Virus record (IMG/VR): IMGVR_UViG_2778261172_000005
Coordinates: 1-36,440 of that record
Length of the DNA stretch: 36,440 nt
Strand: one strand, 5' to 3'
Origin: a virus
Lineage: Duplodnaviria > Heunggongvirae > Uroviricota > Caudoviricetes
Shown here: positions 1,535-36,440 of the stretch, piece by piece
Layout: the number at the start of each line of letters is the position of its first letter
Position numbering within the stretch: position 1 is the stretch's first letter
The notes under the pieces: model-generated
Database searches by the model: none
Seen by the model: the letters and a program-made list of their open reading frames with translations, nothing else
What the model was told of the DNA's origin: nothing
Made by a program: the position numbers and the translations under genes

Positions 1535-1596
1535 CGCGTAATACAGTGAAATAAAAGGATTTATTTCTGGTCACGTCCACACATTGACCACATCGA

Positions 1597-1623
1597 CAAA
1601 AAAGCCCCTCGACTGAGGGGCTT
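1597..1623 (-). terminator. Rho-independent terminator downstream of ogr
   Basis: On the minus strand, stem AAGCCCCTC / GAGGGGCTT with loop AGTC, followed by TTTTTTG. It lies 12 nt past the ogr stop. Confidence 0.7.
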
Positions 1624-1634
1624 CCTGTTTGTAA

Positions 1635-1853
1635 TTACATCCACATAATTTGCTGCCCTGACGGCAACGGGTGCGGTCTTACGGCGTGGACTTCTCCCGG
1701 CTTCACGATGTATCGCTGTACCGACTCATAAGTGATGAACGTGGCGCTGCAATTCACGTTCTGGCACTGGTGATAACGCTCTTTTGTCGTGTCAGTGATA
1801 TAGCGACTTGTACGCGCATGTGCGGCATGCTGGCATAAAGGACAATGAAACAT
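1635..1853 (-). CDS. ogr: Ogr, zinc-finger activator of late transcription (72 aa)
   Basis: MFHCPLCQHAAHARTSRYITDTTKERYHQCQNVNCSATF has the CxxC...CxxxxC pattern. The internal Met at 1853 gives the P2 size of 72 aa. The 93-aa track ORF is an N-terminal over-extension. Confidence 0.9.
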   Translation of the reverse strand: MFHCPLCQHAAHARTSRYITDTTKERYHQCQNVNCSATFITYESVQRYIVKPGEVHAVRPHPLPSGQQIMWM

Positions 1854-1934
1854 CGCGAGCACCTCTTCCGGTTTTGTTGATGGTGCCATTTTAGTTAATT
1901 TATTCTTATAAAACAAACAGATAAAACAAAAACA

Positions 1935-3098
1935 TCACTCATCATCTTCTGTTTCGTACTCCACATCAGAAAGCCTGACCTCAAGCTCCAAGGACGTCGT
2001 GAAGCCGCTATTATTCAGAAAATGTGTCACCTTAGTGATTGTCCAGTCCTGCTCGTCTATGACGCGCTTAAAGCCTGACACTTTGACCGACGTTTCCGTG
2101 TAAATATCTGCCCGACCGGTAGCCAGACTGATGGAGAACTCCGCGACGCCCCGTTGCAGTTTGTCCCACTTCGCCTGAGCGGCGCGCATGGCCTGCGCTT
2201 TCGTGGCATATACCGTGGTCAGGGCAAAAACGTTGTCAGCCTCACCGGCCATGTATTCACCTTCGCGCGCTTCCGGTACTTTTGGCGCTTTCTTCTGCGT
2301 GACTGGTTTCGCTTTCGGGTGCTCCAGTGCGCGCAGGTGTTTTTCTTTCTTTTTGCGTTTCAGTTTTACCTTCTGCTTTTGCGGCTTCGGGTCTTTGGTG
2401 TGAAGCCACTTTGCCGTTACGCCGGTATAGGCTCCACGGTCAGCAATCGCAAAATGGTGGCGGTCGCCGTCGCTGCGGGTTATGGTGACCTGCGGGATTT
2501 TTTTACCGCTGGCCGTCACCCCCTGCCCCGCTTTGAGAAACAACAGTTTTCCCATTTTTACCGAGACCTCACCACCGTTGCGTTCTGCAAGACGGGTCAG
2601 GAATTTCGCATCAGACTCCTGCGACTGGTCGATGTGCGGGATTTTAATTCCTGCCAGTGACGGCGCGACACTGGCTTCCAGCCTGTTACGGGAGGCTATC
2701 GCCTCAACAATCGCACCGAGCGTGGTGTCATGCCAGGAGCCTTCACGGCGGGAATTGAGCGTCCCGCGAAAATCTGCACTCCGGGCGCGGATGGTAACCA
2801 CATCCGGTGCGCCCCGGTGTTCAACCTCATCAACGGTGAATTTCCCTTTGCATACCAGGGCAAAACCTTTCCAGCCGATATACACCGTCAGGACAGCGCC
2901 ACGAACCGGCAGCCCGACCTGCCCGTCGGCATCGTTCAGTTCAATATCAAGCTGGTCAGCCTCAAAGCCCCGGTTATCCGTCAGGGTCATGCTCATCAGA
3001 CGGTCGCTGATATTGCCGGTAATATCCCTGCTGTCGAGCATCAGCATGTAATCCGGTGTCAGCGTACTGCCTGCATCAAATGTCAGCGCATCCAGCAT
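1935..3098 (-). CDS. D: Tail/late control protein gpD (387 aa)
   Basis: Size and position are identical to P2 D. It is the last gene of the FI-FII-E-T-U-D operon. Confidence 0.9.
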   Translation of the reverse strand: MLDALTFDAGSTLTPDYMLMLDSRDITGNISDRLMSMTLTDNRGFEADQLDIELNDADGQVGLPVRGAVLTVYIGWKGFALVCKGKFTVDEVEHRGAPDVVTIRARSADFRGTLNSRREGSWHDTTLGAIVEAIASRNRLEASVAPSLAGIKIPHIDQSQESDAKFLTRLAERNGGEVSVKMGKLLFLKAGQGVTASGKKIPQVTITRSDGDRHHFAIADRGAYTGVTAKWLHTKDPKPQKQKVKLKRKKKEKHLRALEHPKAKPVTQKKAPKVPEAREGEYMAGEADNVFALTTVYATKAQAMRAAQAKWDKLQRGVAEFSISLATGRADIYTETSVKVSGFKRVIDEQDWTITKVTHFLNNSGFTTSLELEVRLSDVEYETEDDE

Positions 3099-8661: not shown

Positions 8662-9579
8662 TCACTCCATTTCTCTTTTGGCTAATTCTTCCCATTCGTC
8701 GATTGAGTTATTATAAGGAAATACCTCTTTAACTATGAAAGGAATGTAGCTTTCTTCAGCATTGTGATGTATTTCATTACTGATATTACTTGTGATTCCG
8801 AATTTTACGTCAGGATCGTTTTCAGAGAAATGTATATGAAAAGGTTGTTGACCTAAAGCCTGTCTAATTTTATTTGCTTGTTCTGATGGAAGGACTTTAA
8901 GTAGCTGTTTGAATGTTTTTTTATTAAAGTCTAGAGAAATGGCCATATCAATATCTCCGGGTATCATAGATATGCACGTGTATGACCGTTCGCTCAATCG
9001 ACTAATAAATTTAGTATTTATAGCAGGGGCACTAAAAGAACCATCTTTAACCAAACCCATTTTTCGAATATGAATTCCAAAATCAGGTGCATAACTCAAG
9101 ACATCCGGATTGGCTTTAATATCTGGATTTAATATCCTAAATAATTTTTCCCAGTAATTACCAATGTCTTTCAAAGAAAATCTGAGTATTGGGTGGAGTT
9201 CCCGTATACTATATAGAACAAATTCATTCCCATTGCACAATGCATACATTTCTGCCCTTATTTCTGGATGTATAGCATAACTATAGGCTTGCTCAACGTG
9301 CATGCTTTTGGTTATTTTTTCATTAGGGGCCTTTGCATCAAGAATCCAATATGGTCGGTCGTTAGAAAGAAAAACATAATCCGGTACTATTGAAATCTTT
9401 CTTGGCTGTGAACCTATTGAGACAAATGGATGTGTAAGCGTTTTGCTCCTGATTACACGACTATCTCCCGATGCTTTATAACCAAGAGCTTTAATAATTG
9501 GTAAAATCAACTCTTCTCTGACTGAATCCTCTTTAAATTCATCTGAGCTTAGTAAGTTAAAATCAAAATCATCAAACAT
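8662..9579 (-). CDS. PD-(D/E)xK nuclease-fold protein with an HsdR-N-terminal-like domain and an unassigned C-terminal half (305 aa)
   Basis: N-terminal pattern EELILPIIKALGYK...IVPDYVF...WILDAKAP...VEQAYSYA...ALCNGNEFVLYS fits the type I restriction R-subunit N-terminal (Mrr-like) nuclease fold, with D, D-A-K and Q signatures. The gene is AT-rich, has its own terminator and sits at the Z/fun position. I am confident it is coding and less sure of the family. Confidence 0.7.
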   Translation of the reverse strand: MFDDFDFNLLSSDEFKEDSVREELILPIIKALGYKASGDSRVIRSKTLTHPFVSIGSQPRKISIVPDYVFLSNDRPYWILDAKAPNEKITKSMHVEQAYSYAIHPEIRAEMYALCNGNEFVLYSIRELHPILRFSLKDIGNYWEKLFRILNPDIKANPDVLSYAPDFGIHIRKMGLVKDGSFSAPAINTKFISRLSERSYTCISMIPGDIDMAISLDFNKKTFKQLLKVLPSEQANKIRQALGQQPFHIHFSENDPDVKFGITSNISNEIHHNAEESYIPFIVKEVFPYNNSIDEWEELAKREME

Positions 9580-9593
9580 ATCCCCCCCACATA

Positions 9594-9623
9594 TATTTAT
9601 TTGACAAAAGATGTATAATTCAA
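9594..9623 (-). promoter_or_regulatory. Candidate sigma70 promoter for the 305-aa gene: -35 TTGAAT (9623-9618), 18-nt spacer, -10 TAAATA (9599-9594)
   Basis: Read on the minus strand directly upstream of a G7 Shine-Dalgarno-like run and the ATG at 9579. This is only a hexamer match. Confidence 0.3.
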
Positions 9624-9893
9624 ATTATTCAGAGCCATTGTAAATCACTATAGAATAAAAAGATAATTTCAAGTGGAGGTGTTATCTGATTTTTTGATTT
9701 ATAGCACAAAAAACGACCTCTACAGGCTGTTTATTACGATAGTTAAAGCTGATCACATTTAGGCAGTCAGTCCAAGATGCTCTCTTCAACATGGCCTAGG
9801 TTTTTTTACCGTCGAAGAAGATAATTGTGTCCATAGCATGATGCTTTCAAGTGGTATGATCTCTTTCTCAGTGATTCATGCAGTATGAGCCTA

Positions 9894-9934
9894 GCAACTT
9901 CTGCTTCTGGCACAGGGCGGACTTTCTGACTGAG
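9894..9934 (-). repeat. Cargo-island repeat, copy A (internal, same orientation as B)
   Basis: Plus strand GCAACTTCTGCTTCTGGCACAGGGCGGACTTTCTGACTGAG aligns with 11051-11092. The shared stretch CTGCTT(C/T)TGGCACAG(G/A)GCGGACT is nearly identical. Confidence 0.7.
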
Positions 9935-10085
9935 TTGAAGGTCTGCTGCGACCGAATATCGGACATTAATAACCTCAGAGACATAGCGCCCTTGAAATGC
10001 ACCCCTCCAGAAATGAAAATCTGTTATGATACTAGCATAAACTATTTATTTTTCAGTAAAGTTTAGAAAACAAATTTTTATGAAT

Positions 10086-10112
10086 AGAAAAAAGGAGAAC
10101 AATGCCCTCCTT
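10086..10112 (-). terminator. Candidate terminator of the DUF2971-like gene
   Basis: On the minus strand, AAGGAG-GGCATTGTT-CTCCTT followed by TTTTTCT. It lies about 20 nt past the stop. The stem is short (6 bp). Confidence 0.45.
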
Positions 10113-10130
10113 CTTTATTTTTAAATTCTA

Positions 10131-10859
10131 CTACAATTTAATTTTTAGTCTTTTAGGAGCATCGTATAGAGTAGATATTTTTATTTCGGCTTTACAACCC
10201 TTATCCTCAATTGCCAATGTGTATGCCTGCCTTAAGTTTTTTTCCATTCTTGGGTCAAATAGCACGGTGTCTAATAGTTCAACTGGATTAATTTCAAACT
10301 GGAAAATATCATTATCGACACTATTATCATCACCAGAATATATTAAACGAACTTCGCTTTCGTGTTCAAACTCCACGCGTTTGTATAAAAGCGATTCAGC
10401 AATGCCTGAGCCATTAGTGTTGAATAAATCAATTGACAAGAGTTTTTCCGAAAGAGTATCCTCCGGAAGATAAGAAACCTTGCCTATAAAACACCTTAAA
10501 TTATGGTAAGTCGGCTCTGCTTTTTGAAGTGCGGCTAATAGTTTTCTTGGTGTGGTTGAAACTCTTACACCATTTTTATCATGGGAATATATCCGCCACA
10601 TTGCATCGGTTTCACTATGAAATGTCCAGCATTGCCCATAAACAGAATCTCTTGCGGCAACTGTTCCTGTTTGACCATCAGAAGTTTCAATTACACAATT
10701 TAATAAAGCGTTCTCAAAAGGGTCATCCCATTTTCTTGGTTTTACTAAAGTTAATTTTTTTTCTTCAAGCAATTGAAGAAAACGGTGTATTGGCATAATT
10801 CTATAAATAGGTATATCCAATGATTCATCTGTTAAATTAATATAGTTATTATAGCTCAT
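10131..10859 (-). CDS. DUF2971-like protein (242 aa)
   Basis: The motif order matches my memory of DUF2971: IYRIMPIHRFLQLLEEKKLTLVKPRKWDDPFE, then GQCWTFHSETDAMWRIYSHDKNGVRV, then LLYKRVEFEHESEVRLIY. The gene is strongly AT-rich and sits at the Z/fun position. Confidence 0.65.
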   Translation of the reverse strand: MSYNNYINLTDESLDIPIYRIMPIHRFLQLLEEKKLTLVKPRKWDDPFENALLNCVIETSDGQTGTVAARDSVYGQCWTFHSETDAMWRIYSHDKNGVRVSTTPRKLLAALQKAEPTYHNLRCFIGKVSYLPEDTLSEKLLSIDLFNTNGSGIAESLLYKRVEFEHESEVRLIYSGDDNSVDNDIFQFEINPVELLDTVLFDPRMEKNLRQAYTLAIEDKGCKAEIKISTLYDAPKRLKIKL

Positions 10860-26975: not shown

Positions 26976-27521
26976 ATGATAAATATTAATGAAGAAATTA
27001 ATAATTCTTTCGATGAGTTTGATGAGGAGGATAAACAGCAAGCTTACTTATCTTTCTTTAAAAATAGTTTCCCTTTTTTACTTTGCCCAACTCTATTCAA
27101 ACGCAGTGAAGATCTCCCTCAATTAAATTGGGTGAAAGTAAAATATACTGAGCATGCGGCTCATACTTTCCCAAATCAACAGGGAGTATATATGTTTATG
27201 GTTGGTTTCGAAAGCACTAAGCTCCCCAATAATTCATATGTTATGTATGTAGGAAAGGCCGGCGATACTAATTCCAACAACACAATCTGCAAAAGGTTTA
27301 AAGATTACGTTAATCCATCTGGATTTAGAGACAGGCCCAGAGTTAAGAAACTCATTCAGCATTTTAGTGAGCATTTATATTATTACTATGCAACACTCCC
27401 AACAGGGCAATCCACAGCAGATGTTGAATCCACTTTAGCCGATATTTTCGCACCACCTTGTTGTCAACGAGATTTTTCAGCTAATGTGCGAAGCTTATTG
27501 AGAGGAGTTAGAATTATATGA
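26976..27521 (+). CDS. GIY-YIG-like nuclease-domain protein with an acidic N-terminus (181 aa)
   Basis: QGVYMFMV-x11-SYVMYVGKAG...ICKRFKDY...YYYYATL...ADVESTLADIFAPP follows the GIY...YIG...R...E order of GIY-YIG catalytic cores. The gene is AT-rich. Its stop overlaps the next ATG (ATGA at 27518-27521). Confidence 0.6.
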   Translation: MININEEINNSFDEFDEEDKQQAYLSFFKNSFPFLLCPTLFKRSEDLPQLNWVKVKYTEHAAHTFPNQQGVYMFMVGFESTKLPNNSYVMYVGKAGDTNSNNTICKRFKDYVNPSGFRDRPRVKKLIQHFSEHLYYYYATLPTGQSTADVESTLADIFAPPCCQRDFSANVRSLLRGVRII

Positions 27522-28657
27522 ATCAACGTTTAGTCCTTCCATGTTTGAGAGGCTATATGGGGAGCTGGATTACATATAGTTGCATGATGAGACTTTCAGA
27601 TGCATCCAATTTGATCGGGTTTGCTGAGGAACTCCATCAAATTGATAAATTGTCAGACAAAATACAACGTGAATTAAATAATGATAGGGCTGAAGAAATC
27701 TCTCATTATTTGGTTAGCAATGATGATCGCTTCTTTAACTCATTAGTTGTAGCTGTTTATGATGGCGATCCAAATTGGCATGAAATTGGAGGAATAACTC
27801 CAAACAATGAAGAAGCCTCTTTGCTTGATTTTCCTGAGTATGCAGGGAATTGCATTGGTTTTTTATCCATTACAAGAGATGAAAAATTTTTTGCACTTGA
27901 TGGACAACATCGCTTAGCTGGCATCAAAGCTGCTCTTAAAGTTAATAGCGATATTGCTGATGATCTAATTAGCGTTATTATTGTTGCTCATGCTAATACG
28001 CCAGAAGGTAAAGTAAGATCCAGAAGATTATTTACCACTTTAAATAAAAAGGCAAAATTAGTTAGTAAAGATACCATTATAGCTTTAGATGAGGATGATA
28101 TAGCAGCATGCATAACAAGACGTCTAATTGAGGCAGAGGATTTCATATACTTCAATGAAGATAACGTATCCTTTAACTCTGGTCCTGTTAGAGATAAAAC
28201 GAGCATCACATCTATTGTTAATATATATGATAATGTTCAGAAGTTAGTAGCATATAAATTAGGTGTTAAAATTACCGAGTTGGAAAGATACAAGTATAAA
28301 GATCATATTGACATATACAACTTCATTTCTAATTTTTATAGCTACACATTCGAAGGATGTGAAGAGTTAATCAAAGTAGCTAAAGGTGAACAACCTGCTG
28401 GATTTTATAGAAATTCCGAAACTGGTGGGCATATTTTGTTTAGACCTATTGGTTGGGATTTATATACAGATATAGTACTCTATGCCATGACTCATTTTAA
28501 TCATGACCTTAAAAAGGCAATTCAACACATCACCAAACACAATCTAAACATGTCTGGCTCTATTCTATCCAACAAAGTTTGGTCAACAAAACAAAAGAAA
28601 ATCCTTAAGATAAGTGCTAAAAACATAAAAGCAATACAAAAAAGTTTGTTATCATAA
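27518..28657 (+). CDS. DGQHR-domain (DndB-like, ParB/Srx-fold) protein (379 aa)
   Basis: It carries the literal motif FALDGQHRLAGIK followed by RRLFTTLNKKAKLVS, the signature of the DGQHR/DndB family. The gene is AT-rich and translationally coupled to the upstream ORF. Confidence 0.75.
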   Translation: MNQRLVLPCLRGYMGSWITYSCMMRLSDASNLIGFAEELHQIDKLSDKIQRELNNDRAEEISHYLVSNDDRFFNSLVVAVYDGDPNWHEIGGITPNNEEASLLDFPEYAGNCIGFLSITRDEKFFALDGQHRLAGIKAALKVNSDIADDLISVIIVAHANTPEGKVRSRRLFTTLNKKAKLVSKDTIIALDEDDIAACITRRLIEAEDFIYFNEDNVSFNSGPVRDKTSITSIVNIYDNVQKLVAYKLGVKITELERYKYKDHIDIYNFISNFYSYTFEGCEELIKVAKGEQPAGFYRNSETGGHILFRPIGWDLYTDIVLYAMTHFNHDLKKAIQHITKHNLNMSGSILSNKVWSTKQKKILKISAKNIKAIQKSLLS

Positions 28658-28680
28658 ATCAATTGATACTATATTACTGT

Positions 28681-28719
28681 ACAGTTTAAAAACCGCCAAT
28701 CAGGCGGTTTTTAAACTGT
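28681..28719. terminator. Bidirectional terminator between the cargo cassette (+) and the early operon (-)
   Basis: Perfect 17-bp arms ACAGTTTAAAAACCGCC / GGCGGTTTTTAAACTGT around a 5-nt loop. The GC core has an A-run on one side and a T-run on the other. Confidence 0.8.
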
Positions 28720-28815
28720 CAACCAAGCGTTTCTTGAGCGGTTTACATTCTTAAACCAGTGCCGTATTTAACTAAACATAACATTCCAGCCAATCTGACA
28801 GGTCAGTAACATCCG

Positions 28816-28974
28816 TTATCCGGGCTTCACTTTTCGTCTCGTATATCCATACAGAATAAACGAGCCTCCGCTCTCATAATTACGGTGATTTTTAAGAAAC
28901 TCCGCGCGTTTCTTTCCTTCCAGCCCAAGGTCTAAATATTTTGTGTGCAGCTTTACCTCATGAATTTTTGCCAT
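28816..28974 (-). CDS. Small ASCH/DUF3850-like protein (52 aa), possibly truncated
   Basis: MAKIHEVKLHTKYLDLGLEGKKRAEFLKNHRNYESGGSFILYGY resembles the N-terminal two thirds of DUF3850/ASCH beta-barrel proteins. Its ATG shares a base with the A stop (TAATG at 28972-28976). Confidence 0.5.
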   Translation of the reverse strand: MAKIHEVKLHTKYLDLGLEGKKRAEFLKNHRNYESGGSFILYGYTRRKVKPG

Positions 28975-31265
28975 TATGTCCACTCCATTACAGCTGAGAA
29001 TCCCGGCCACTCATCAGCGACCGGATACGTGAATTTTTTCCCGTCATAATTTACTGTTGCCCCACGCGCCAGCGCCTCAAGCTCCCATCGCTGCGGCCTG
29101 ATACCGTTCTGAGCAAGGTCAACGCGGATACGGGTAATTTGCGTTCGTTCCGACCGGGTCAGTCTGGCCGATGGCGCTATTTCATGTGGTTTTAACGGGC
29201 TTCCGTTTCTCTGCTGACGATTTGGTGTTCTCAGTTCGTGTTTTAATGCACCTCTGAGCGCCCTCACGACCTCTGGCTCATTCCATTCGATAACACCGTC
29301 ATCAACCAGATTAAGCACTGCTGCGGCGTGCTCAGAAGGCGTGGGAGCCGGTGACGAAGTATCACCGTCGGTAAGCTTTCCACAGTTATTGACAGGACTC
29401 CGAGGCGCGGCGATGCCGCTTTTTAAAGTCAAAGGCTCAACGACCGGAACTTTCGGCACAATGCGCCAGTCCGTCGTTCTGGTGATATGAATATGACGCG
29501 CGCCGAGATGCGGCGCGTAAATGCCGACCACTCTCTCGACTTCTTCCTCATACTCGTTAACGTCATCCGACGGGCTACGGGCGACCCTGACAGTCTGACA
29601 ATCGCGCGGGACATTTGCCCCGCCCTGCGCGCTGATATACAGCGCAAAATCGCCACTGTCTGCGGCAGCGCGTGCAGCCTCGACGCGTTCGTCAAACTCA
29701 TCAGCAATGCTGACGCCGCGAGGCAACTTACGTAGTTCACGGTAAGCCCCCATTGTCGGCAGGCCAACCGTTTTAAATTGCGGGATGCGCCACGTTGACG
29801 CCCATGCGGTAACAGCCGCAGCAGTGTCTTTCAGCGGCCTGCCGGTATCGTTATCGAGCTGACCATCCAGTGCATAGCCGTCGATGTTTTTTGAAATGTA
29901 TTTCGCGATATATCCCGCAGCACCGCCCCGGTTAAGGTGTTTTGCCTGAAAACGGTTTCGCGCAGCTCCTCTTTCGTCGCCATCCTCTTTGAGCGCATAG
30001 CGACGCATGATTTCGATAATCTGGTTACGCTGGCGTGGATTACAAAAAAGCATCATATGCCAGTGCGGCGTTCCGTCGTGGTGTGGCTCGACGACTCGCA
30101 AACCGTAGACCTGTAAATCATTATCCTTGAATGCCGTGCGCATCAGGCTCCAGATACGGCAGAGATAACGCTGCGCATCCTTCGGATTAAATGCCTCATC
30201 ATTCCAGCCGTGATTAAGCTGGACGGTTTTACTTTCGCCTTTTCCGACCTGACGTGTCGGATGATACTTTGACGGCGCGGTCAGCGTGATAAACATCCCC
30301 ACATCACCCTCTGCGGCGGCGTAACGCTCAATACCGGCAATGGTGTTCATCAGCTCCATCCGGCGAATTTCAGGATTAGAAATACTGCCCATCACCTTAC
30401 TGATAAGGTCGATGCGTTCGCCGGTTTCCCTGTTTTCAAGGTCACACGATTTAAGAAATTCCAGATTTGCCTGACGGCGCGTACGCACATCACGAATAGC
30501 ATGTTTACTGGCATAAGGTGAACGGTCTTTATTGACCTCCCCGACAGCAATCAGTAACGCCTCATGCCAGCGCATACGCTGGCCTTTAAGCTGATGAGTC
30601 CACCACTCATCGTTAAACAGACGGGCAATGGCAGAATATGCCTGCCTCGTGGTCATCTGCCCTTTACGGTATTTTTTCCAGTAGAGAGGGGAAATATTGA
30701 AAGCTCGTGCAGCGCCAGCAACATGACCATACAGGTGAGCCTGCGCCTCATCCGTAAACAGCGATTCTTTCTCGCCATGCGCATCCACCCAGGCATCGCT
30801 GAGTTCCTCATACATCATGAAAAGCTGCGATGAGATACGGGCGGCAAATTTTTTCAGCTCCTTGTCATTCATTCCCGGCAGGCGTGCATACTGGTCGCGC
30901 TCTGCCAGAAACAGCAACGACGCGTCGGTGTTCATTTCATGGCGCTGATTCACGCGCTCAATGCGCGGCCATAAACGACGCTGAAAAGTGGATGTGAGGA
31001 AATAAAACCCGTGTAGCGGACTTTTATTGCGCCGGATGTAGTCATAGCGTGAAGTAAACAGCGAGCGCAAAAAGTAAGGCAGGCGGTTAATCGTGGATAA
31101 AACACCTTGCACCTGACGCATCTCGTCACGTGTAAGGGTTCTTTCGCGCCCGACGGCCTCGCGTGGCGCGTTCCATGCATAAGCACCGGTAAACGCCTTA
31201 CCGGTGCCTGCAGCAAATGCTGACGGAGGTACGCAGGTGTATTGCTCCTGGAAAGAATGACTCAT
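28974..31265 (-). CDS. A: Replication initiation endonuclease gpA (763 aa), rolling-circle HUH type
   Basis: It has the HUH-like motif EPHHDGTPHWHMMLF and the tyrosine motif GYIAKYISKNIDGY. It is P2-collinear; P2 A is about 761 aa. Confidence 0.9.
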   Translation of the reverse strand: MSHSFQEQYTCVPPSAFAAGTGKAFTGAYAWNAPREAVGRERTLTRDEMRQVQGVLSTINRLPYFLRSLFTSRYDYIRRNKSPLHGFYFLTSTFQRRLWPRIERVNQRHEMNTDASLLFLAERDQYARLPGMNDKELKKFAARISSQLFMMYEELSDAWVDAHGEKESLFTDEAQAHLYGHVAGAARAFNISPLYWKKYRKGQMTTRQAYSAIARLFNDEWWTHQLKGQRMRWHEALLIAVGEVNKDRSPYASKHAIRDVRTRRQANLEFLKSCDLENRETGERIDLISKVMGSISNPEIRRMELMNTIAGIERYAAAEGDVGMFITLTAPSKYHPTRQVGKGESKTVQLNHGWNDEAFNPKDAQRYLCRIWSLMRTAFKDNDLQVYGLRVVEPHHDGTPHWHMMLFCNPRQRNQIIEIMRRYALKEDGDERGAARNRFQAKHLNRGGAAGYIAKYISKNIDGYALDGQLDNDTGRPLKDTAAAVTAWASTWRIPQFKTVGLPTMGAYRELRKLPRGVSIADEFDERVEAARAAADSGDFALYISAQGGANVPRDCQTVRVARSPSDDVNEYEEEVERVVGIYAPHLGARHIHITRTTDWRIVPKVPVVEPLTLKSGIAAPRSPVNNCGKLTDGDTSSPAPTPSEHAAAVLNLVDDGVIEWNEPEVVRALRGALKHELRTPNRQQRNGSPLKPHEIAPSARLTRSERTQITRIRVDLAQNGIRPQRWELEALARGATVNYDGKKFTYPVADEWPGFSAVMEWT
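29389..29408 (-). other. Candidate ori / gpA nick site inside gene A
   Basis: The minus strand reads GCGCCTCGGAGTCCTGTCAA, which matches my uncertain recollection of the P2 A-protein cleavage region. It lies in the 3' part of A, where P2 ori maps. Confidence 0.4.
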
Positions 31266-32269
31266 TCACATACACCGGCATAGACACTACTGCAAACGGC
31301 TTTATCATTCGCCGAAGCCAGTAAATCAAACTGAGTACCCCCACGCGTTGTCATTGTCCAGTCATGGTAGGTTTCTATTCCGTATGCCTCGACTGTTACA
31401 ATCTCAATACGACGTTCTGCGCGTAGCGGATCATGTGTGGATGGGAAAAAAGTGGAATTTCCCCGACGGGAGCACGACGCAACCAGTCGTTCCCATTCAG
31501 CAACCCGTTTTATTTCCTCCGGCCACCGGCGAAAAATTTCTGCCAGTTCAGATTTACGGACATGAATACATGGCATACAACCAACACGGCCACACCCCTG
31601 CTGATATAACGGATTTGGCTTAATGTCATGTCTTCTGGCTATTGCAAATACATCTTCATGCTTCCAGTGCAAAATCGGGCGATATACATGCAATCCGGGG
31701 GTGTTGTCTGCATCCTCTTCCCAGACAGGTAAAGCAGCGCGTGATGGCGATTCCTGAGCACGCACTCCCTGCCAGCTAATCACTTCCTCAAATTCATTGA
31801 GTAAAGGCAATATTACCTGAGAACGCACGGGCTCATGTTTCAGTTCAAATGTGCAAAATCTGGCTTTGGTTGATGGGAAACGCCCCTTCCACAGACACAA
31901 ATCAAGAAACGGGATACCCGTTGGTTTGAGAATTTCCAGCGCACAACTGATGCGCTGGTGCGCTTCTTCTTCCGACATTCCACAATCGTTAACCAACAAA
32001 TCAGGCCATTTGGTCTGGATAAACTTGCGCTTTGATTCAATCCGGCAGGAAAAATCAGCTCTGACTCTTTTAATTGGGCCAAGCCGTTTTTCCAGATAAT
32101 CCAGATATTTCATTGTCTGTGGATGTTCATGTCCCGTATCAGCAAAAACCGGCAATATGGGTACATTTTCTTCAATAGCGACAAGCCACTGAGCAAGGCT
32201 GTCCTTTCCACCTGAAACAAAAATAACATTGATGGTATTTTCAGTATGGCAACGAGCATCAGTAATCAT
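31262..32269 (-). CDS. PP-loop ATP pyrophosphatase of the PAPS-reductase / DndC-like family (335 aa)
   Basis: It has the N-terminal PP-loop motif VIFVSGGKDS and a C-terminal cysteine cluster QQGCGRVGCMPC. ATGA overlaps join it to both the upstream ORF (32266-32269) and A (31262-31265). As I recall the P2 early operon, P2 has no such gene. Confidence 0.75.
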   Translation of the reverse strand: MITDARCHTENTINVIFVSGGKDSLAQWLVAIEENVPILPVFADTGHEHPQTMKYLDYLEKRLGPIKRVRADFSCRIESKRKFIQTKWPDLLVNDCGMSEEEAHQRISCALEILKPTGIPFLDLCLWKGRFPSTKARFCTFELKHEPVRSQVILPLLNEFEEVISWQGVRAQESPSRAALPVWEEDADNTPGLHVYRPILHWKHEDVFAIARRHDIKPNPLYQQGCGRVGCMPCIHVRKSELAEIFRRWPEEIKRVAEWERLVASCSRRGNSTFFPSTHDPLRAERRIEIVTVEAYGIETYHDWTMTTRGGTQFDLLASANDKAVCSSVYAGVCE

Positions 32270-32544
32270 TCAGACGCTCCTCTGGAGAACGCCTCTGAAC
32301 AACGCTTGCTGAGTTGCTCAACCTGCGCGTTTAAATCAGCAAAAGACTTTGCGCTTCCGGTCAGAATATCGTGATGCATCAGGCCGGAAACGAGCTGGCT
32401 TAATTTCGGGTAATAACCAACCACCGCCAGCCATTCCTGACCGGCGTTTTTACCGCTTTCCGCTCTCTTTTTCTCGTGGAGAATAAACTGAAAGCTGTCA
32501 CTGGTAACGACATAACGTTCGCCAATTTCAATACGAATACTCAT
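32266..32544 (-). CDS. Hypothetical early-operon protein (92 aa), positional equivalent of P2 orf83
   Basis: The ORF is chained to its neighbours by 4-nt overlaps. I recognise no motif. Confidence 0.6.
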   Translation of the reverse strand: MSIRIEIGERYVVTSDSFQFILHEKKRAESGKNAGQEWLAVVGYYPKLSQLVSGLMHHDILTGSAKSFADLNAQVEQLSKRCSEAFSRGASE

Positions 32545-32765
32545 GCCATTCTCCGGTAATGCTTGTTTTTTGCTTCAAAGACTGACTGGCAGGAAACACA
32601 ACGCGTGGCTGACGGATAAGCTGCACGACGGGCAGCAGGTATTGGCGCGTCACACTCTTCGCAAACCAGCGCAGAAACACCGCAATGTTTTACCCTTGCC
32701 GCGTTAATCTGGCGCTCCAGTAATTCAGCCTGTTGTTCCTGAATAAAATCTACGTTGTCCGGCAT
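32541..32765 (-). CDS. TraR/DksA-family C4 zinc-finger protein (74 aa), P2 orf82-like
   Basis: CEECDAPIPAARR...RCVSCQ is a four-cysteine DksA/TraR finger. Confidence 0.75.
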   Translation of the reverse strand: MPDNVDFIQEQQAELLERQINAARVKHCGVSALVCEECDAPIPAARRAAYPSATRCVSCQSVFEAKNKHYRRMA

Positions 32766-33070
32766 TACCAGCTCCTTTTGTCGTTCAGCTTCTTAAATTC
32801 ATCAGCGCAATAGCTGGCGATTTCTGTCGTTAATTTTGTCAGTTCATCCACTGAGGAAATTTGCTTGTGGAATACAGCGCGTTTAACAAGTAAATTGACC
32901 ACATCAGACAGGAGGTTTAATTCATTCTGATAAATCGCGATAACAGATTCAGTGATGTCGCGTTTTTCTTTATCAAGACAAAGTTGAATAAGAGACAAAT
33001 CACCATTTTCCATAACGGCGATTTTTAAGGCGTTATTCAGTAATACAACTGAATGAGAACAGGACATCAA
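32765..33070 (-). CDS. Hypothetical early-operon protein (101 aa), P2 orf81 position
   Basis: The ORF is coupled to its neighbours. I recognise no motif. Confidence 0.55.
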
Positions 33071-33291
33071 AGTACCTCCCCGCGAGACAATCCGATATTG
33101 TGAAATTTTTCCGACTCCTGACTGAGCAGCTCGACTATCTCCACGCGGGATAACTCCGCCTTTGTGATGTGGCGAATCATGGCGTCAAGATGAGAAGAAA
33201 AGCGCGTCGCCGCGTCGGCCTGTGCTTCGGTTCTGGCCTGTTGCAGCAGTAATGCGTATTTACCGCACTGATTTTCAGAAACTGTATGCAT
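33067..33291 (-). CDS. Hypothetical early-operon protein (74 aa), P2 orf80 position
   Basis: The Met at 33291 has SD GGAG 6 nt upstream. The longer track ORF lacks an RBS. Confidence 0.55.
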
Positions 33292-33354
33292 GACTTTCTC
33301 CAGGCAAAAAGAAGCCCCGCACAATTAAGTGCGTTAAAAACTCTGGTTAATTAC

Positions 33355-33855
33355 TTAATGCAGATATTGCTCTGGTTTTACCGACGTCAGAATTGTCGGT
33401 GCATACTCAAACAGGCTGAATAATTCACGTAATGCACGGAATAAAGCATCACGCCAGTAACATGACTCTTCATTAATTCGCCAGTATGGCTGGTTGAATT
33501 CTTTTTCAGTCAATCCGGCATGCATAAATAAAGTACGACGCTGACTGACTGTTAAAAAACTAATATATGCATACTCACTTGCACCGACCTGACGGCGTTT
33601 TGAGAATGCCCCACGCAATTCATCAATTGCACAAACCAGCCGTTCACGTTCGACGTCGTTCATTTCTTCAAAACGCATCGTTGCGTGACGTTGTTTTAAC
33701 TGCGCATGAAAGCAAACTGTTAGCCGTTCGCGCTCCATCATCTGATTATAATAATCACATGTATCCTGCCAGCGAGGAACGGCAAGATGCTTACCAATTA
33801 TCCGGCGCATGGTTGCTGGCTGTTTTTCAACGAGATTGAGCGTCATCACTGTCAT
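33355..33855 (-). CDS. B: Replication protein gpB (166 aa), helicase-loader type
   Basis: The Met at 33855 is 8 nt from SD GGAGG and overlaps the upstream stop (ATGA). The size is 166 aa as in P2. Confidence 0.8.
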   Translation of the reverse strand: MTVMTLNLVEKQPATMRRIIGKHLAVPRWQDTCDYYNQMMERERLTVCFHAQLKQRHATMRFEEMNDVERERLVCAIDELRGAFSKRRQVGASEYAYISFLTVSQRRTLFMHAGLTEKEFNQPYWRINEESCYWRDALFRALRELFSLFEYAPTILTSVKPEQYLH

Positions 33856-34032: not shown

Positions 34033-34308
34033 TTAACGTGGTTCACCGAGACCTAACCACATCAACCAGCCGTCACGAATCTCTTTAGGACGGCTTTCAT
34101 AAGCCAGTTTTAGTCCGTTATTCCATGCCGGAAGGTATACCCAATATTCACCAGCACGCCCCGATACTGACTGAGGGTCAGTAATCTCAATAACTGGTAA
34201 TTTCCCTTTCTCAATCATGCCCCTTACAGCTCTTGGAGTTTTACCAATGAGTTTTGCAAACTCCTGATAAGGCACGGCATCAGTCACGCTTACAAGCTGT
34301 CTATTCAT
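34033..34308 (-). CDS. cox: Cox: excisionase, repressor of Pc and activator of satellite P4 (91 aa)
   Basis: 91 aa. The C-terminal part DPQS.SGRAGEYWVYLPAWNNGLKLAYESRPKEIRDGWLMWLGLGEPR matches my memory of P2 Cox. It is the first gene of the early operon. Confidence 0.85.
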   Translation of the reverse strand: MNRQLVSVTDAVPYQEFAKLIGKTPRAVRGMIEKGKLPVIEITDPQSVSGRAGEYWVYLPAWNNGLKLAYESRPKEIRDGWLMWLGLGEPR

Positions 34309-34429
34309 CTGCTACGATTCTCCCTTAGTGCTTCTAATGGCTCCTAATGGCTAATTATTGCCTAAAAGGATAACTCCAGAAGCGCAACATTTCACACTAT
34401 CAGCAAGAAATTACGCAATCGGAGTAATT
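34309..34429. promoter_or_regulatory. Pe/Pc immunity switch region with a direct-repeat operator candidate CTAATGGCT x2 (34334-34342 and 34344-34352)
   Basis: This is the divergent cox and C intergenic region. Two perfect 9-bp direct repeats are phased 10 bp apart, followed by a partial third copy, GCTAATT. P2-type C repressors are known to bind direct repeats around Pe. Confidence 0.5.
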
Positions 34430-34729
34430 ATGTCAATAGACGTTTCGGAGAAGTTGAAGCTAATCCGTGAATCTGAAAGGTTAAACCGTAAAGAATTCAG
34501 TGAATTAACTGGTGTAGCCTACAGCTCACTTTCGAGCTATGAGAGCCGGTCAAAAAACGCTGGAGTTGAAGCCATAATGAAGGTCTTACAACATCCTAGA
34601 TTTACTAAATATACTTTGTGGTTCATGACTGATCAGGTAGCTCCAGAAGCCGGGCAAATTGCGCCCGCTCTCGCACACTTTGGGCAAAACGAAACAACGT
34701 CGCCCCACTCCGGTCAAAAGACTGGTTAA
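34430..34729 (+). CDS. C: Immunity repressor C (99 aa)
   Basis: The Met at 34430 has SD GGAG 5 nt upstream and gives 99 aa as in P2. The C-terminus FTKYTLWFMT.Q.APE.GQIAPALAHFGQNETTSPHSGQKTG is P2-like, while the N-terminal HTH half differs from my memory of P2 C. Confidence 0.85.
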   Translation: MSIDVSEKLKLIRESERLNRKEFSELTGVAYSSLSSYESRSKNAGVEAIMKVLQHPRFTKYTLWFMTDQVAPEAGQIAPALAHFGQNETTSPHSGQKTG

Positions 34730-34844: not shown

Positions 34845-35858
34845 ATGGCAATCAAAAAACTCGATGATGGTCGATATGAAGTGGACATCCGCCCTACTGG
34901 ACGTAACGGAAAACGCATCCGTAGGAAGTTTGATAAGAAAAGCGAAGCTGTCGCTTTCGAAAAATACACGTTGTACAACCACCACAATAAAGAATGGCTA
35001 TCAAAACCAACAGACAAACGACGTCTGTCGGAACTGACACAGATCTGGTGGGATTTAAAGGGTAAACACGAAGAGCATGGGAAATCTAATCTTGGAAAAA
35101 TTGAAATCTTCACAAAAATAACGAATGACCCATGCGCATTTCAAATCACGAAATCCCTTATCAGCCAGTACTGCGCCACCCGAAGAAGTCAGGGTATTAA
35201 ACCTTCGAGTATCAATCGTGATTTAACATGTATTAGCGGCATGTTTACAGCCCTGATTGAAGCGGAGTTATTCTTTGGTGAGCACCCTATCAGAGGGACA
35301 AAGAGGCTTAAGGAGGAAAAACCAGAAACAGGCTATCTCACACAGGAAGAAATTGCCTTACTGCTTGCAGCACTTGACGGCGACAATAAAAAGATTGCGA
35401 TTCTTTGCCTGAGTACAGGAGCACGTTGGGGAGAAGCAGCTCGTTTGAAAGCAGAAAATATCATCCATAACCGCGTCACGTTTGTTAAAACGAAAACAAA
35501 CAAACCACGCACCGTCCCGATCTCAGAGGCTGTTGCCAAAATGATCGCGGATAACAAACGAGGTTTTTTATTCCCTGATGCTGATTACCCTCGCTTCAGA
35601 CGAACAATGAAAGCAATAAAACCGGATTTGCCAATGGGGCAAGCCACACATGCACTAAGGCACAGCTTTGCCACTCATTTCATGATTAATGGAGGAAGTA
35701 TTATCACGCTACAACGGATACTAGGTCACACGCGGATTGAACAAACTATGGTTTACGCTCATTTTGCGCCAGAGTACCTTCAGGACGCCATTTCTCTTAA
35801 TCCGCTAAGAGGTGGTACTGAGGCCGAGAGTGTCCACACAGTGTCCACAGTAGAGTAA
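34845..35858 (+). CDS. int: Tyrosine integrase (337 aa)
   Basis: 337 aa as in P2 Int. It has the catalytic-region motifs ARWGEA...HALRHSFATHF...LGHTRIEQTMVYAH and lies next to the att core. Confidence 0.9.
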   Translation: MAIKKLDDGRYEVDIRPTGRNGKRIRRKFDKKSEAVAFEKYTLYNHHNKEWLSKPTDKRRLSELTQIWWDLKGKHEEHGKSNLGKIEIFTKITNDPCAFQITKSLISQYCATRRSQGIKPSSINRDLTCISGMFTALIEAELFFGEHPIRGTKRLKEEKPETGYLTQEEIALLLAALDGDNKKIAILCLSTGARWGEAARLKAENIIHNRVTFVKTKTNKPRTVPISEAVAKMIADNKRGFLFPDADYPRFRRTMKAIKPDLPMGQATHALRHSFATHFMINGGSIITLQRILGHTRIEQTMVYAHFAPEYLQDAISLNPLRGGTEAESVHTVSTVE

Positions 35859-36122: not shown

Positions 36123-36440
36123 TCACTCTCCACATTTGAATGTCAGACGAGCGACGCCATGTAATCCTGCACCTTCTGTCTTCAGGTCAACTATCTGCAT
36201 TTTTTTGCCCTGAGTAACACAGAAATGGGCTGCATCATTTTTTACTATATTTTCTGCACCAGATATTCTGCCCCTGGCTAAAGAAGCTTCGGCTTCGGTG
36301 TAGTATTGGTTATCGAGTTTACGCTGAATATTACTTTTATATGCAAGACCAAATTTACCGATACTTGTCTCATCATTATGCACAGCACAACCAGACATAA
36401 TAAAAATACTAATTAATGATATAGCAGCTATCTTTTTCAT
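36123..36440 (-). CDS. yegR: Lipoprotein YegR (105 aa), complete
   Basis: MKKIAAISLISIFIMSGCAVH carries the lipobox MSGC. I recognise it as E. coli YegR. The ATG is the last triplet of the window. Confidence 0.85.
   Translation of the reverse strand: MKKIAAISLISIFIMSGCAVHNDETSIGKFGLAYKSNIQRKLDNQYYTEAEASLARGRISGAENIVKNDAAHFCVTQGKKMQIVDLKTEGAGLHGVARLTFKCGE

Follow-up and report, generated by a model that had tools for sequence, protein, structure and literature searches.

The 335-aa open reading frame (ORF) at 31262..32269, on the minus strand of the window (the whole 36,440-nt stretch of viral DNA analysed here), is by its sequence orthologous to phage 186 orf84, here in a P2-like prophage, and belongs to PHROG 424; as such it is already known. 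The gene is accessory, non-essential cargo of the early lytic operon, and its product, by translation and by PF01507 and phrog_424 matches a stand-alone ATP pyrophosphatase of PP-loop type within the PAPS-reductase superfamily, probably serves phage DNA modification or counters host restriction.

An orf84 ortholog in the early lytic operon

An earlier note on this DNA had described the ORF as a PP-loop enzyme of the PAPS-reductase superfamily inserted into the replication operon. The superfamily assignment was borne out by Pfam, PHROG, PADLOC and NCBIfam matches. Pfam PF01507 (PAPS_reduct) matched far above its gathering score (E=5e-35, 121.4 bits, cut-off 22.5 bits), residues 15-236 covering profile positions 3-174 of 175, and was the sole Pfam domain in the ORF; the phrog_424 profile matched with E=7e-86. 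The enzyme is not a novel insertion, however: the earlier note set it against a canonical P2 early operon lacking such a gene, but the other archetype, phage 186, has it in exactly the same slot. Phage 186 Orf84 (NP_052288) showed 76.3% identity over ORF residues 2-335, compared with only 37% between the two gene A products. In both phages the DUF5405 gene is followed by orf84 and then A, the stop and start codons overlap and the motifs are the same, and no essential difference was found between the two proteins; RefSeq describes the 186 protein as of 'unknown function; not essential'. Annotation in RefSeq already exists for E. coli, Yersinia phage P37 and many prophages, and phage P37 and E. 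coli prophages repeat the gene arrangement seen here. The gene is rare: just 44 of the 5426 complete E. coli genomes have it.

The ORF proved real, and runs on the minus strand from an ATG at 32269..32267 to a TGA at 31264..31262. Upstream of it lies a P2 orf83-like early gene of the DUF5405 family (32266..32544, minus strand; 92 aa, identified by ORF call, Pfam and phrog_154), and downstream the replication gene A (28974..31265, minus strand; a 763-aa rolling-circle initiator, Pfam Phage_GPA E=1e-123). The operon begins with cox (34033..34308, minus strand; Pfam Phage_Cox E=2e-42), from which the repressor gene diverges (34358..34729, plus strand; Pfam HTH_3). Both ATGA overlaps that had been claimed are present in the sequence of the minus strand, one joining the DUF5405 stop to the orf84-type start (32266..32269) and the other joining the orf84-type stop to the start of gene A (31262..31265), where translation is probably coupled. 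A Shine-Dalgarno sequence, GAGGAG (32277..32282, minus strand), stands 7 nt 5' of the orf84-type ATG, within the end of the upstream gene, and no clear one was seen ahead of gene A on reading the sequence. Between cox and the ORF, no promoter-like sites were found except one at 33772. Because the gene sits in the early lytic operon, is chained to A and lacks a promoter-like site of its own, its arrangement fits expression at infection or induction and not in the lysogen. The early timing proposed before thus holds up on these grounds, together with the gene's own Shine-Dalgarno sequence, and the gene is read with the replication genes from the early promoter. Its position beside A likewise stands for this prophage, but only P2/186-like phages have the gene next to A, and relatives in lambdoid and other phages lie in nin or early regions without A.

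Conserved motifs, predicted fold and named relatives

Conservation was scored over 45 diverse homologs of 39-56% identity, residues conserved in at least 90% of them forming a near-invariant class; the motifs below all lie on the minus strand. The PP-loop VSGGKDS, an ATP alpha-beta pyrophosphatase signature recognised from translation and homologs, is present near the N-terminus as had been noted (residues 18-24, 32198..32218), with G21, D23 and S24 invariant and S19, G20 and K22 at least 90% conserved. Homolog alignment covered four further motifs. DTGHEH (residues 44-49, 32123..32140) is the DTG motif that binds nucleotide in the PAPS-reductase fold; D44, T45 and E48 are invariant, and it aligns with the DTG of CysH chains and of lambda NinC. 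FCTFELK (residues 138-144, 31838..31858) contains a candidate first Fe-S ligand, Cys139, which is invariant together with Lys144, and FCT..LK also occurs in lambda NinC. GVRAQES (residues 168-174, 31748..31768) is a G-x-R-x-x-E-S phosphate-binding strand in which G168, R170 and E173 are invariant and which aligns to GLRREQS of CysH. The cysteine cluster GCGRVGCMPC (residues 225-234, 31568..31597) is there as described earlier, but its first cysteine, C226, is not family-conserved. Only RVGC231xPC234 is, with C231 invariant and C234 at least 90% conserved, and this CxxC aligns with the Fe-S motif 'SIGCAPC' of M. tuberculosis APS reductase (7lhr).

The protein ends in CSSVYAGVCE (residues 326-335, 31265..31294; homologs), with a strictly C-terminal family consensus of C-S-S-x-Y-G-L-C-E in which C334 and E335 are invariant and C326 and S328 at least 90% conserved; the same tail is found in a 36%-identical lambdoid homolog. 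Its cysteine is a putative mobile catalytic or persulfide-carrying residue, a role suggested by the comparable ECGLH tail at the C-terminus of CysH. The conserved cysteines of the family are C139, C231, C234, C326 and C334. Of these, C139, C231 and C234 are candidate ligands of a [4Fe-4S] cluster, for which Fe-S-dependent PP-loop enzymes of the APS reductase, TtuA or DndC type have three or four. The PP-loop, C139/C231/C234 and the cysteine tail would fit an Fe-S, mobile-cysteine adenylating enzyme.

In the predicted model the closest solved fold was CysH/APS reductase (Foldseek E about 1e-7, TM about 0.57 on target). The model carries a helical insertion at residues 74-128 and has low confidence in its C-terminal third, including the C-terminal tail, with pLDDT <50 at residues 230-236. 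A loop at 134-136 is also of low confidence, which may point to an unmodelled cofactor site.

DndC, BrxP and IbrA had been named as enzymes of this kind; profile and partner checks placed the ORF in none of these groups, nor in SspD. The DndC equivalog TIGR03183 scored 21.3 bits against a cut-off of 290.4, the PADLOC DndC match (1e-7) was limited to residues 127-214, and no DndD- or DndE-like genes were found among the scanned ORFs, the neighbours being the DUF5405 gene and gene A. The best of the PADLOC matches, to SspD (2.7e-21, 74.5 bits), spanned only profile positions 73-216 of 277, and no SspB or SspC partner adjoined the gene. IbrA is defined by an adjoining ParB-like IbrB gene and an IbrA-specific C-terminal domain; here there is no adjoining ParB-like gene and PF01507 is the only domain, which sets IbrA apart by description. 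For BrxP, the PADLOC match (8e-13) covered only profile positions 212-336 of 779 in an ORF of 335 aa, and no brx genes were present; published work describes BrxP of type 4 BREX as about 780 aa long, combining a PAPS domain with a DUF4007/SspB-like one, and flanked by BrxC/Z/L. The ORF shares with DndC, SspD and BrxP the superfamily, the catalytic core and the proposed chemistry of ATP pyrophosphatase activity plus sulfur insertion. It differs in lacking the DndD/SspC/BrxC NTPase and the DndE/SspB DNA-binding partner, and in being phage early-operon cargo whereas those genes belong to host defence islands. The PAPS domains of BrxP, DndC and SspD have been reported to produce phosphorothioate (PT) DNA, and PT synthesis to require a PAPS-domain protein plus an NTPase (published work). 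The ORF also gave a weak match to the PADLOC type II methyltransferase (MTase) model.

Lambda NinC (ORF-290 of the nin region) emerged as a remote homolog (hhalign probability 99.4%, E=4e-21, 25% identity). The two have in common the PP-loop, DTGxEHP, FCT..LK and CxxC, and each is a dispensable early or delayed-early gene. In contrast, NinC has 290 aa, its PP-loop reads SGGRTS, and its C-terminal region does not align with that of the orf84 family.

Methyltransferase neighbours and competing explanations

The relatives of the ORF adjoin DNA methylase genes, which makes DNA modification or counter-restriction the probable function. DNA MTases were the commonest neighbours and occurred in 15 of 22 close loci; the 15 lay within two genes, 12 of them were of the D12-class Dam type, the usual order was Dam-orf84-A, and the neighbouring MTase often overlapped the orf84 start (e.g. 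loci L058 and L056). MTases were also the top neighbour family in 75 distant clusters (11/138 at +-1 and 11/129 at +-2). This amounts to 22/267 at +-1/+-2 against 2/129 at +-3 (odds ratio 5.7, one-sided p=0.005), statistics that derive from crude ORF calling and from loci that are not phylogenetically independent. Annotated examples include MTase-gp57-ParB in phiE125, MTase-PAPS-MTase in Rivra, and PAPS-hypothetical gene-Dam in Parlo, and ParB_N neighbours stand beside some distant relatives. The neighbouring MTases span at least five unrelated families (C5, N4/N6, D12, Dam PF05869 and MT-A70), so that a shared purpose or a shared hotspot fits better than a fixed physical complex. No MTase, P-loop NTPase or DNA-recognition partner was found adjoining the gene in this prophage.

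A precedent comes from a Vibrio podophage, in which a two-gene locus including p0018, a PAPS-Dam fusion, confers escape from host Dnd (Piel et al., 2022; preprint 10.1101/2021.05.05.442762). As in the Dam-orf84 pair of most close relatives, a PAPS domain is there tied to Dam and used against a host defence. The proteins, compared by description only, differ in that p0018 is a fusion with a shorter PAPS domain (residues 4-175), works with a second gene and carries Dam, whereas the ORF here has no adjoining methyltransferase. Aca-regulated phage PAPS reductases have likewise been proposed in the literature as anti-defence genes. The DNA-modification or counter-defence reading of the earlier note is thus partly supported by the MTase enrichment and the Vibrio precedent.

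We weighed five other explanations. The protein might instead thiolate or otherwise modify tRNA or rRNA, in the manner of TtuA, TtcA or ThiI, and so, during lytic growth, tune translation or guard the tRNAs of host or phage against anticodon nucleases. The Fe-S tRNA thiolase TtuA, and ThiI, were the next structural matches after CysH/APS reductases, three conserved cysteines with a PP-loop are the arrangement of TtuA and TtcA, and published work ascribes the shared pyrophosphatase activity to ThiI, MnmA, Ncs6 and TtcA. Against this, the TtuA TM-scores were low (0.3) with a large rmsd, Pfam detected no RNA-binding domain (THUMP, PUA) in the ORF, and the local enrichment of DNA MTases and ParB-like genes points to DNA. 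We regard a role in RNA modification as unlikely.

Alternatively, defence could be countered with the phage DNA left unmodified, the protein acting as a decoy or competitor that binds host IscS, DndD/E, SspB/C or a restriction module, or as a drain on the sulfur relay that leaves PT-sensing effectors unarmed. The gene does lack the partners for autonomous PT synthesis, its product resembles SspD, BrxP and DndC only in part, within the catalytic core, and the anti-Dnd effect of the Vibrio locus has no known mechanism. However, the catalytic residues (PP-loop, DTG, R170/E173) and the C-terminal Cys-Glu are strictly invariant down to 39% identity, which argues for catalysis rather than mere binding, and the family occurs across hosts that seldom carry Dnd or Ssp. 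A decoy or drain is therefore improbable in our view.

An auxiliary metabolic gene would be either a true PAPS/APS reductase supplying sulfite for cysteine, methionine and SAM synthesis, or another small-molecule adenylyltransferase, e.g. one resembling FAD synthetase. CysH/APS reductases are indeed nearest among solved folds and account for the weak sequence matches, FAD synthase is also listed among the structural matches, and the database name for PHROG 424 is 'phosphoadenosine phosphosulfate reductase'. The likeness to CysH extends to the fold, to a CxxC resembling the Fe-S motif of APS reductase, and to a cysteine on a flexible C-terminal tail. But CysH is defined by the C-terminal catalytic motif ECG[LI]H and has a degenerate PP-loop, whereas the orf84-type protein has no ECGLH, ending ...CSSVYAGVCE, and differs further by its canonical ATP-type PP-loop, the insertion at 74-128 and its phage early-operon context. 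All scores for CysH and APS-reductase NCBIfam models fell far under their cut-offs (PRK02090, 67.4 against 154; TIGR02055, 53.1 against 235.3; TIGR00434, 46.7 against 165.1; TIGR02057, 39.9 against 254.2). By profile, then, the protein is clearly not a CysH of sulfur assimilation, which the earlier note had considered as a refuting case. The gene lies in an early replication operon and the family lies near methylases, not sulfur genes, and we hold a metabolic function to be very improbable.

A DndB-like DGQHR cassette (26976..28657, on the strand opposite to the ORF) stands on the far side of gene A, and the ORF might be its DndC-like functional partner. Pairs of ParB/DndB-superfamily and PAPS-reductase-like genes recur, as in phiE125 gp57-gp58 and the ParB_N neighbours mentioned above; DndB-DndC and IbrB-IbrA are further such pairings. 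On one lambdoid contig, 154 nt separate a cassette of 81% identity from an orf84-type gene of 36% identity, and a Serratia 186-like prophage has both. Yet loci L007-L010 and 28/30 E. coli genomes have identical orf84 alleles but no cassette, a conjugative element and an integrative island carry the cassette but no PF01507 gene within 8 kb of it, and the two lie here on opposite strands in separate transcription units. Each occurs without the other, so obligatory pairing is largely refuted. The cassette is cargo independent of the orf84-type gene, and a functional partnership is highly improbable.

Finally, we give almost no credence to a mainly structural role, in which the upstream frame is translated to express A and any enzymatic activity is vestigial: the ATGA overlap, an A without a good Shine-Dalgarno sequence and the RefSeq note for phage 186 that 'translation to end of orf84 appears necessary for translation of A protein' speak for it, but matching P2-like DNA occurs in about 1700 E. 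coli genomes and the gene in only 44 of these, so that other upstream genes can supply the coupling, and the catalytic residues are invariant over deep divergence in a family that thrives in phages without A.

Proposed mechanism and meaning for temperate phages

In our favoured reading, DNA modification or counter-restriction, the orf84-type enzyme would bind ATP and adenylate a substrate oxygen, and sulfur or another nucleophile held on an Fe-S site and/or the mobile C-terminal cysteine would displace AMP. DndC/SspD and the tRNA thiolases work by such chemistry. The likeliest substrate would be nucleic acid, specifically replicating phage DNA, and the likeliest purpose counter-restriction, with phage DNA methyltransferases as functional allies. 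A methyltransferase gene is adjacent and translationally chained in most relatives; there is none in this prophage. The gene might have a second, structural role as well, bringing terminating ribosomes to the weakly initiated A. We give an even chance to this account as a whole, that is, a 186 orf84 ortholog encoding an adenylating enzyme that acts on nucleic acid for counter-restriction, with coupling as a second role. In laboratory hosts phage 186 can do without orf84 and lambda without NinC, so any phenotype would be conditional.

A bolder version, which we think rather unlikely, is that Orf84/NinC-type proteins form a stand-alone class of phage DNA-modifying enzymes, in which an Fe-S site and a C-terminal cysteine arm would install an undetected, possibly sulfur-containing mark on replicating phage DNA, cooperating with or targeted by the neighbouring MTase. 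If this were true, temperate phages would gain a second, methylation-independent layer of counter-restriction.

Operon setting and distribution of the orf84-type gene

The orf84-type ORF, an ortholog of orf84 of the classical temperate coliphage 186, is read on the minus strand from an ATG at 32269..32267 to a TGA at 31264..31262, and its translation carries the PP-loop motif VSGGKDS at residues 18-24 and the sequence GCGRVGCMPC at residues 225-234. The gene that the earlier note had placed at 31262..32269 therefore exists, with the specification that it lies on the minus strand and encodes 335 aa. A comparison with PF01507, which the same note had proposed, gave a match to Pfam PAPS_reduct (E=5e-35). 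Because the product matches both this model and PHROG 424 (E=7e-86), the ORF is evidently not a chance ORF.

As had been described before, ATGA overlaps chain it to both neighbours, and we could read both in the sequence. The first (32266..32269, minus strand) joins the stop of the 92-aa DUF5405 gene to the start of the orf84-type ORF, which has a GAGGAG ribosome-binding site 7 nt upstream. The second (31262..31265, minus strand) joins its stop to the start of the 763-aa rolling-circle replication gene A (28974..31265, minus strand), for which no good ribosome-binding site of its own was found in the sequence. Just downstream of A, a short ORF (28816..29010, minus strand) has a weak DUF3850/ASCH-like match. 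RefSeq labels it a frameshifted ASCH-domain pseudogene, and in phage P37 and other E. coli prophages the gene after A is an intact ASCH or DUF3850 gene.

The window is a P2-like E. coli prophage, identical (100%) over 27000..33400 to strain JNEC-KY180. Its edges (1..1362, plus strand; 36123..36440, minus strand) appear to be host DNA flanking the prophage. A peptidase U32 family gene lies at one edge, and at the other a small ORF with a signal-peptide/lipoprotein-like N-terminus. The early gene order starts with cox (34033..34308, minus strand), from which the repressor and integrase (34845..35858) genes diverge, and continues on the minus strand with a 168-aa ORF, DUF2732, DUF5405, TraR-type zinc finger and DUF5405 genes, the orf84-type ORF and A. 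The 168-aa ORF had no Pfam match; a neighbour of the same length in related loci matches Phage_RepB. Since a consensus scan revealed no promoter-like site just upstream of the orf84-type ORF, the nearest being at 33772, the early lytic promoter should be the only one from which the gene is read, in agreement with the early lytic timing proposed in the earlier note. On the same ground, a separate promoter for lysogenic expression was rejected. A probable second accessory region (8662..10859, minus strand), beside the tail-fibre assembly gene, encodes a 242-aa DUF2971 protein and a 305-aa protein that weakly matches, below the threshold, the nuclease-like domain found N-terminally in type I restriction R subunits. 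This region could be further defence cargo.

By tblastn of a phage collection, we found the gene in phage 186, as Orf84 (76% identity), and in both Yersinia phage P37 and a record titled 'Peduovirus P2' (82% identity). In phage 186 the slot is the same as in the window, with a DUF5405 gene, orf84 and then A in overlapping codons. What had been regarded as an insertion relative to P2 is thus the normal state in the other archetype of the phage group. The RefSeq record of phage 186 describes orf84 as 'unknown function; not essential' and notes that 'translation to end of orf84 appears necessary for translation of A protein', and the translational chaining to A has experimental precedent there. 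We consider it secure that the ORF is the ortholog of 186 orf84 and encodes an accessory enzyme of the early lytic phase, its translation coupled to that of A. The family is already known and annotated; temperate phages harbour it in several hundred sequence clusters.

Among 5426 complete E. coli genomes only 44 carry the orf84-type gene, while about 1725 match the surrounding P2-like DNA at least in part, so the gene is rare cargo. Between the window and phage 186, it is 76% identical and A only 37%; the same holds for IMG/VR P2-like loci (63-80% for the orf84-type gene, 28-40% for A). In addition, copies of 77-79% identity occur in IMG/VR loci without a detected A homolog and with different neighbours. 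That an accessory gene is better conserved than the essential A, and is found in loci without a detected A, suggests either strong constraint or cassette exchange.

Family membership and conserved residues

All NCBIfam CysH/APS-reductase models scored far under their curated cut-offs (e.g. 67 vs 154 bits), as did the DndC equivalog (21 vs 290 bits). The best PADLOC matches, to SspD (2.7e-21), BrxP (8e-13) and DndC (1e-7), covered the catalytic core only. An ORF and Pfam scan showed no DndD/SspC/BrxC-type NTPase, DndE/SspB-type DNA-binding protein or ParB-like IbrB adjacent to the ORF. Judged by these scores and the lack of adjacent partner genes, the protein belongs to the PAPS-reductase superfamily and the phage Orf84 family, outside CysH, DndC, SspD, BrxP and IbrA. 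The kinship with DndC, BrxP and IbrA claimed earlier holds for the superfamily but not for membership, which we rejected, as we did for SspD. A true sulfur-assimilation enzyme, the alternative by which the earlier note could have been refuted, was likewise rejected, since both the curated cut-offs and the motifs speak against CysH.

Phage lambda NinC (1582..2454 of the fetched lambda locus) is a remote homolog (hhalign probability 99.4%, 25% identity). It shares the PP-loop, DTGxEHP, FCT..LK and CxxC motifs with the orf84 family and, like orf84, is dispensable, whereas its C-terminal region does not align with the orf84-family tail. On the function of orf84 or NinC our literature search yielded only 'non-essential', and neither the Aravind-lab Dnd reappraisal nor the P2 hotspot papers treat the orf84-type gene.

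When 1.84 billion cluster representatives were searched exhaustively, 308 clusters matched with E<1e-30, and 2445 with the wider limit of E<1e-3. We aligned 45 diverse members, whose identity to the query was 39-56%, and found as invariant or near-invariant the PP-loop S19-G-G-K-D-S24, D44-T45, E48, D123, C139, K144, G168, R170, E173, N219, L221, Y222, R228, V229, C231, C234, K239, E260, C326, S328 and the final two residues C334-E335. The family consensus at the extreme C-terminus is C-S-S-x-Y-G-L-C-E. The cysteine cluster emphasized in the earlier note is present, but its first cysteine, C226, is not conserved. In a profile search of PDB sequences, RVGC231xPC234 aligned with the SIGCxPC iron-sulfur motif of M. 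tuberculosis APS reductase. Taken from the alignment, the invariant features appear to be those of an adenylating Fe-S/cysteine-tail enzyme. Domain fusion was rejected for longer members of 400-450 aa, which carry insertions or extensions without a Pfam domain and of which none is a methyltransferase fusion.

The AlphaFold2 model had a mean pLDDT of 73.7; residues 1-270 are modelled well, residues 271-335 and the surroundings of the cysteine loops poorly. Its best structural matches were CysH/APS reductases, and the Fe-S tRNA thiolase TtuA and FAD synthase came next; in the viral structure library BFVD, all matches were generic phage 'PAPS reductases' or QueC. Neither the PDB nor the BFVD search turned up a structure of the DndC or SspD type; both gave only generic PAPS-reductase/PP-loop folds.

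DNA methyltransferases in the neighbourhood

About 290 IMG/VR loci encoding family members were freed of duplicates and clustered at 85% enzyme identity, which gave 97 clusters, 22 'close' (>=60% identical to the window protein) and 75 'far'. Neighbouring ORFs were called crudely with a simple script and scanned against Pfam, and the clusters are not phylogenetically independent. Within two genes in the close set, A was found in 16/22 loci, a D12-class N6-adenine DNA methyltransferase in 12/22 and other DNA methyltransferases in 3/22. The D12 enzyme lies mostly immediately upstream (e.g. in the IMG/VR loci L056, L058 and L075), its stop often overlapping the orf84 start. With these counts, Dam-orf84-A is the commonest arrangement in the close set. 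The window, phage 186 and P37 have orf84 without the Dam methylase, and no DNA methyltransferase was found in those other accessory regions of the window that were scanned.

In the far set, DNA methyltransferases were the most frequent neighbour family at ±1 (11/138) and ±2 (11/129), and fell to 2/129 at ±3. Other neighbours included the nin-region genes RusA, NinG and YbcO at ±1 and three ParB_N proteins at ±2. When pooled, ±1/±2 (22/267) differed from ±3 with an odds ratio of 5.7 (one-sided Fisher p=0.005). At ±3, one distant locus (alignment A9) had a Mom-family DNA hypermodification gene, a further DNA-modification neighbour besides methyltransferases. Annotated phages follow this pattern too: methyltransferase gp56, PAPS-like gp57 and ParB-like gp58 in phiE125, a PAPS-like gene between two methyltransferases in Agrobacterium phage Rivra, and Dam one gene away, after the PAPS-like gene, in Serratia phage Parlo. 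The neighbouring methyltransferases span at least five unrelated families, which speaks for a purpose in common and against a single fixed complex.

Proposed activity and its alternatives

The orf84-type enzyme would carry out ATP-dependent adenylation, with a putative Fe-S site at C139, C231 and C234. A further cysteine, which would act in catalysis or carry a persulfide, would be placed on a mobile C-terminal arm, much as CysH has a cysteine in its C-terminal tail. Such chemistry is the same as that attributed to DndC/SspD and tRNA thiolases. We give roughly even odds to an adenylating Fe-S/cysteine-arm enzyme that acts on phage DNA in counter-restriction, allied with phage methyltransferases. 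The modification or counter-defence role suggested in the earlier note is partly supported, namely by the methyltransferase association and by a Vibrio anti-Dnd precedent: two genes, one of them a PAPS domain fused to Dam, allowed growth on a Dnd-protected host when moved into a related Vibrio podophage (Piel et al., 10.1101/2021.05.05.442762). A 2026 NAR paper also places Aca-regulated phage PAPS reductases among candidate anti-defence genes. What counts against this role is that the gene stands alone. In a 2026 Nature Communications paper, BrxP and BrxC together produced phosphorothioate DNA, and the authors emphasize that a PAPS-domain protein requires a P-loop NTPase as partner, which argues against autonomous phosphorothioation by a lone orf84-type gene.

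An RNA or tRNA thiolase, for which the TtuA match and the shared chemistry could speak, is unlikely beside the DNA methyltransferase neighbours. Somewhat less probable is a non-modifying decoy or sulfur-relay competitor against PT-based defences, with which the missing partner and the Vibrio precedent are compatible, and the invariant catalytic residues less so. A metabolic enzyme is improbable, given the CysH scores. Other papers still handle phage PAPS reductases as sulfur-metabolism genes or state that they 'deserve further investigation'.

Very improbable is a partnership with the DndB-like cassette across gene A, a split-pair idea that arose from the closeness of a DndB-like gene to a DndC-like gene. 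In the window the cassette occupies the previously described P2 A|Q defence hotspot and consists of two plus-strand genes overlapping by 4 nt, for a 181-aa protein without a Pfam match (26976..27521) and a 379-aa DGQHR/DndB-family protein (27518..28657; TIGR03187, 110 bits vs a cut-off of 58.85). It is present in 2/5426 complete E. coli genomes, and homologs of 70-85% identity occur in P2/186-like and lambdoid phage hotspots, a conjugative element and an integrative island. For the partnership speak a lambdoid contig (L305, 6393..9166), in which an 81%-identical cassette lies 154 nt from an orf84-type gene, and a Serratia 186-like prophage that has both the cassette and an orf84-type gene. On that contig the orf84-type gene is 36% identical to the window ORF, ends in CSSRYGLCE and is convergent with the cassette, both lying in the nin region next to NinB- and NinG-like genes. 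In contrast, no PF01507 gene was found within 8 kb of diverged cassette copies in a conjugative element and an integrase/HipA island, another copy occupies a different P2 hotspot, and identical orf84 alleles occur without the cassette. Obligatory pairing was rejected on this distribution; the cassette is a self-contained mobile module of the kind usual in defence hotspots and looks like a mobile defence candidate. Finally, a mere spacer coupling translation to A is barely credible beside so many invariant residues.

Genes of the orf84 family are routinely mislabelled as sulfur-metabolism 'auxiliary metabolic genes'. Our analysis cleanly excluded the named families, established which catalytic features are invariant, the C-terminal Cys-Glu tail among them, and quantified the local DNA methyltransferase association. 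Non-CysH status, invariant features and this association replace a vague annotation by a counter-defence hypothesis that can be tested in a phage amenable to genetics. If counter-defence fails, orf84 is an ordinary, dispensable accessory gene; if it is confirmed, the family would be a new enzyme class in phage anti-restriction, and a new DNA mark might emerge.
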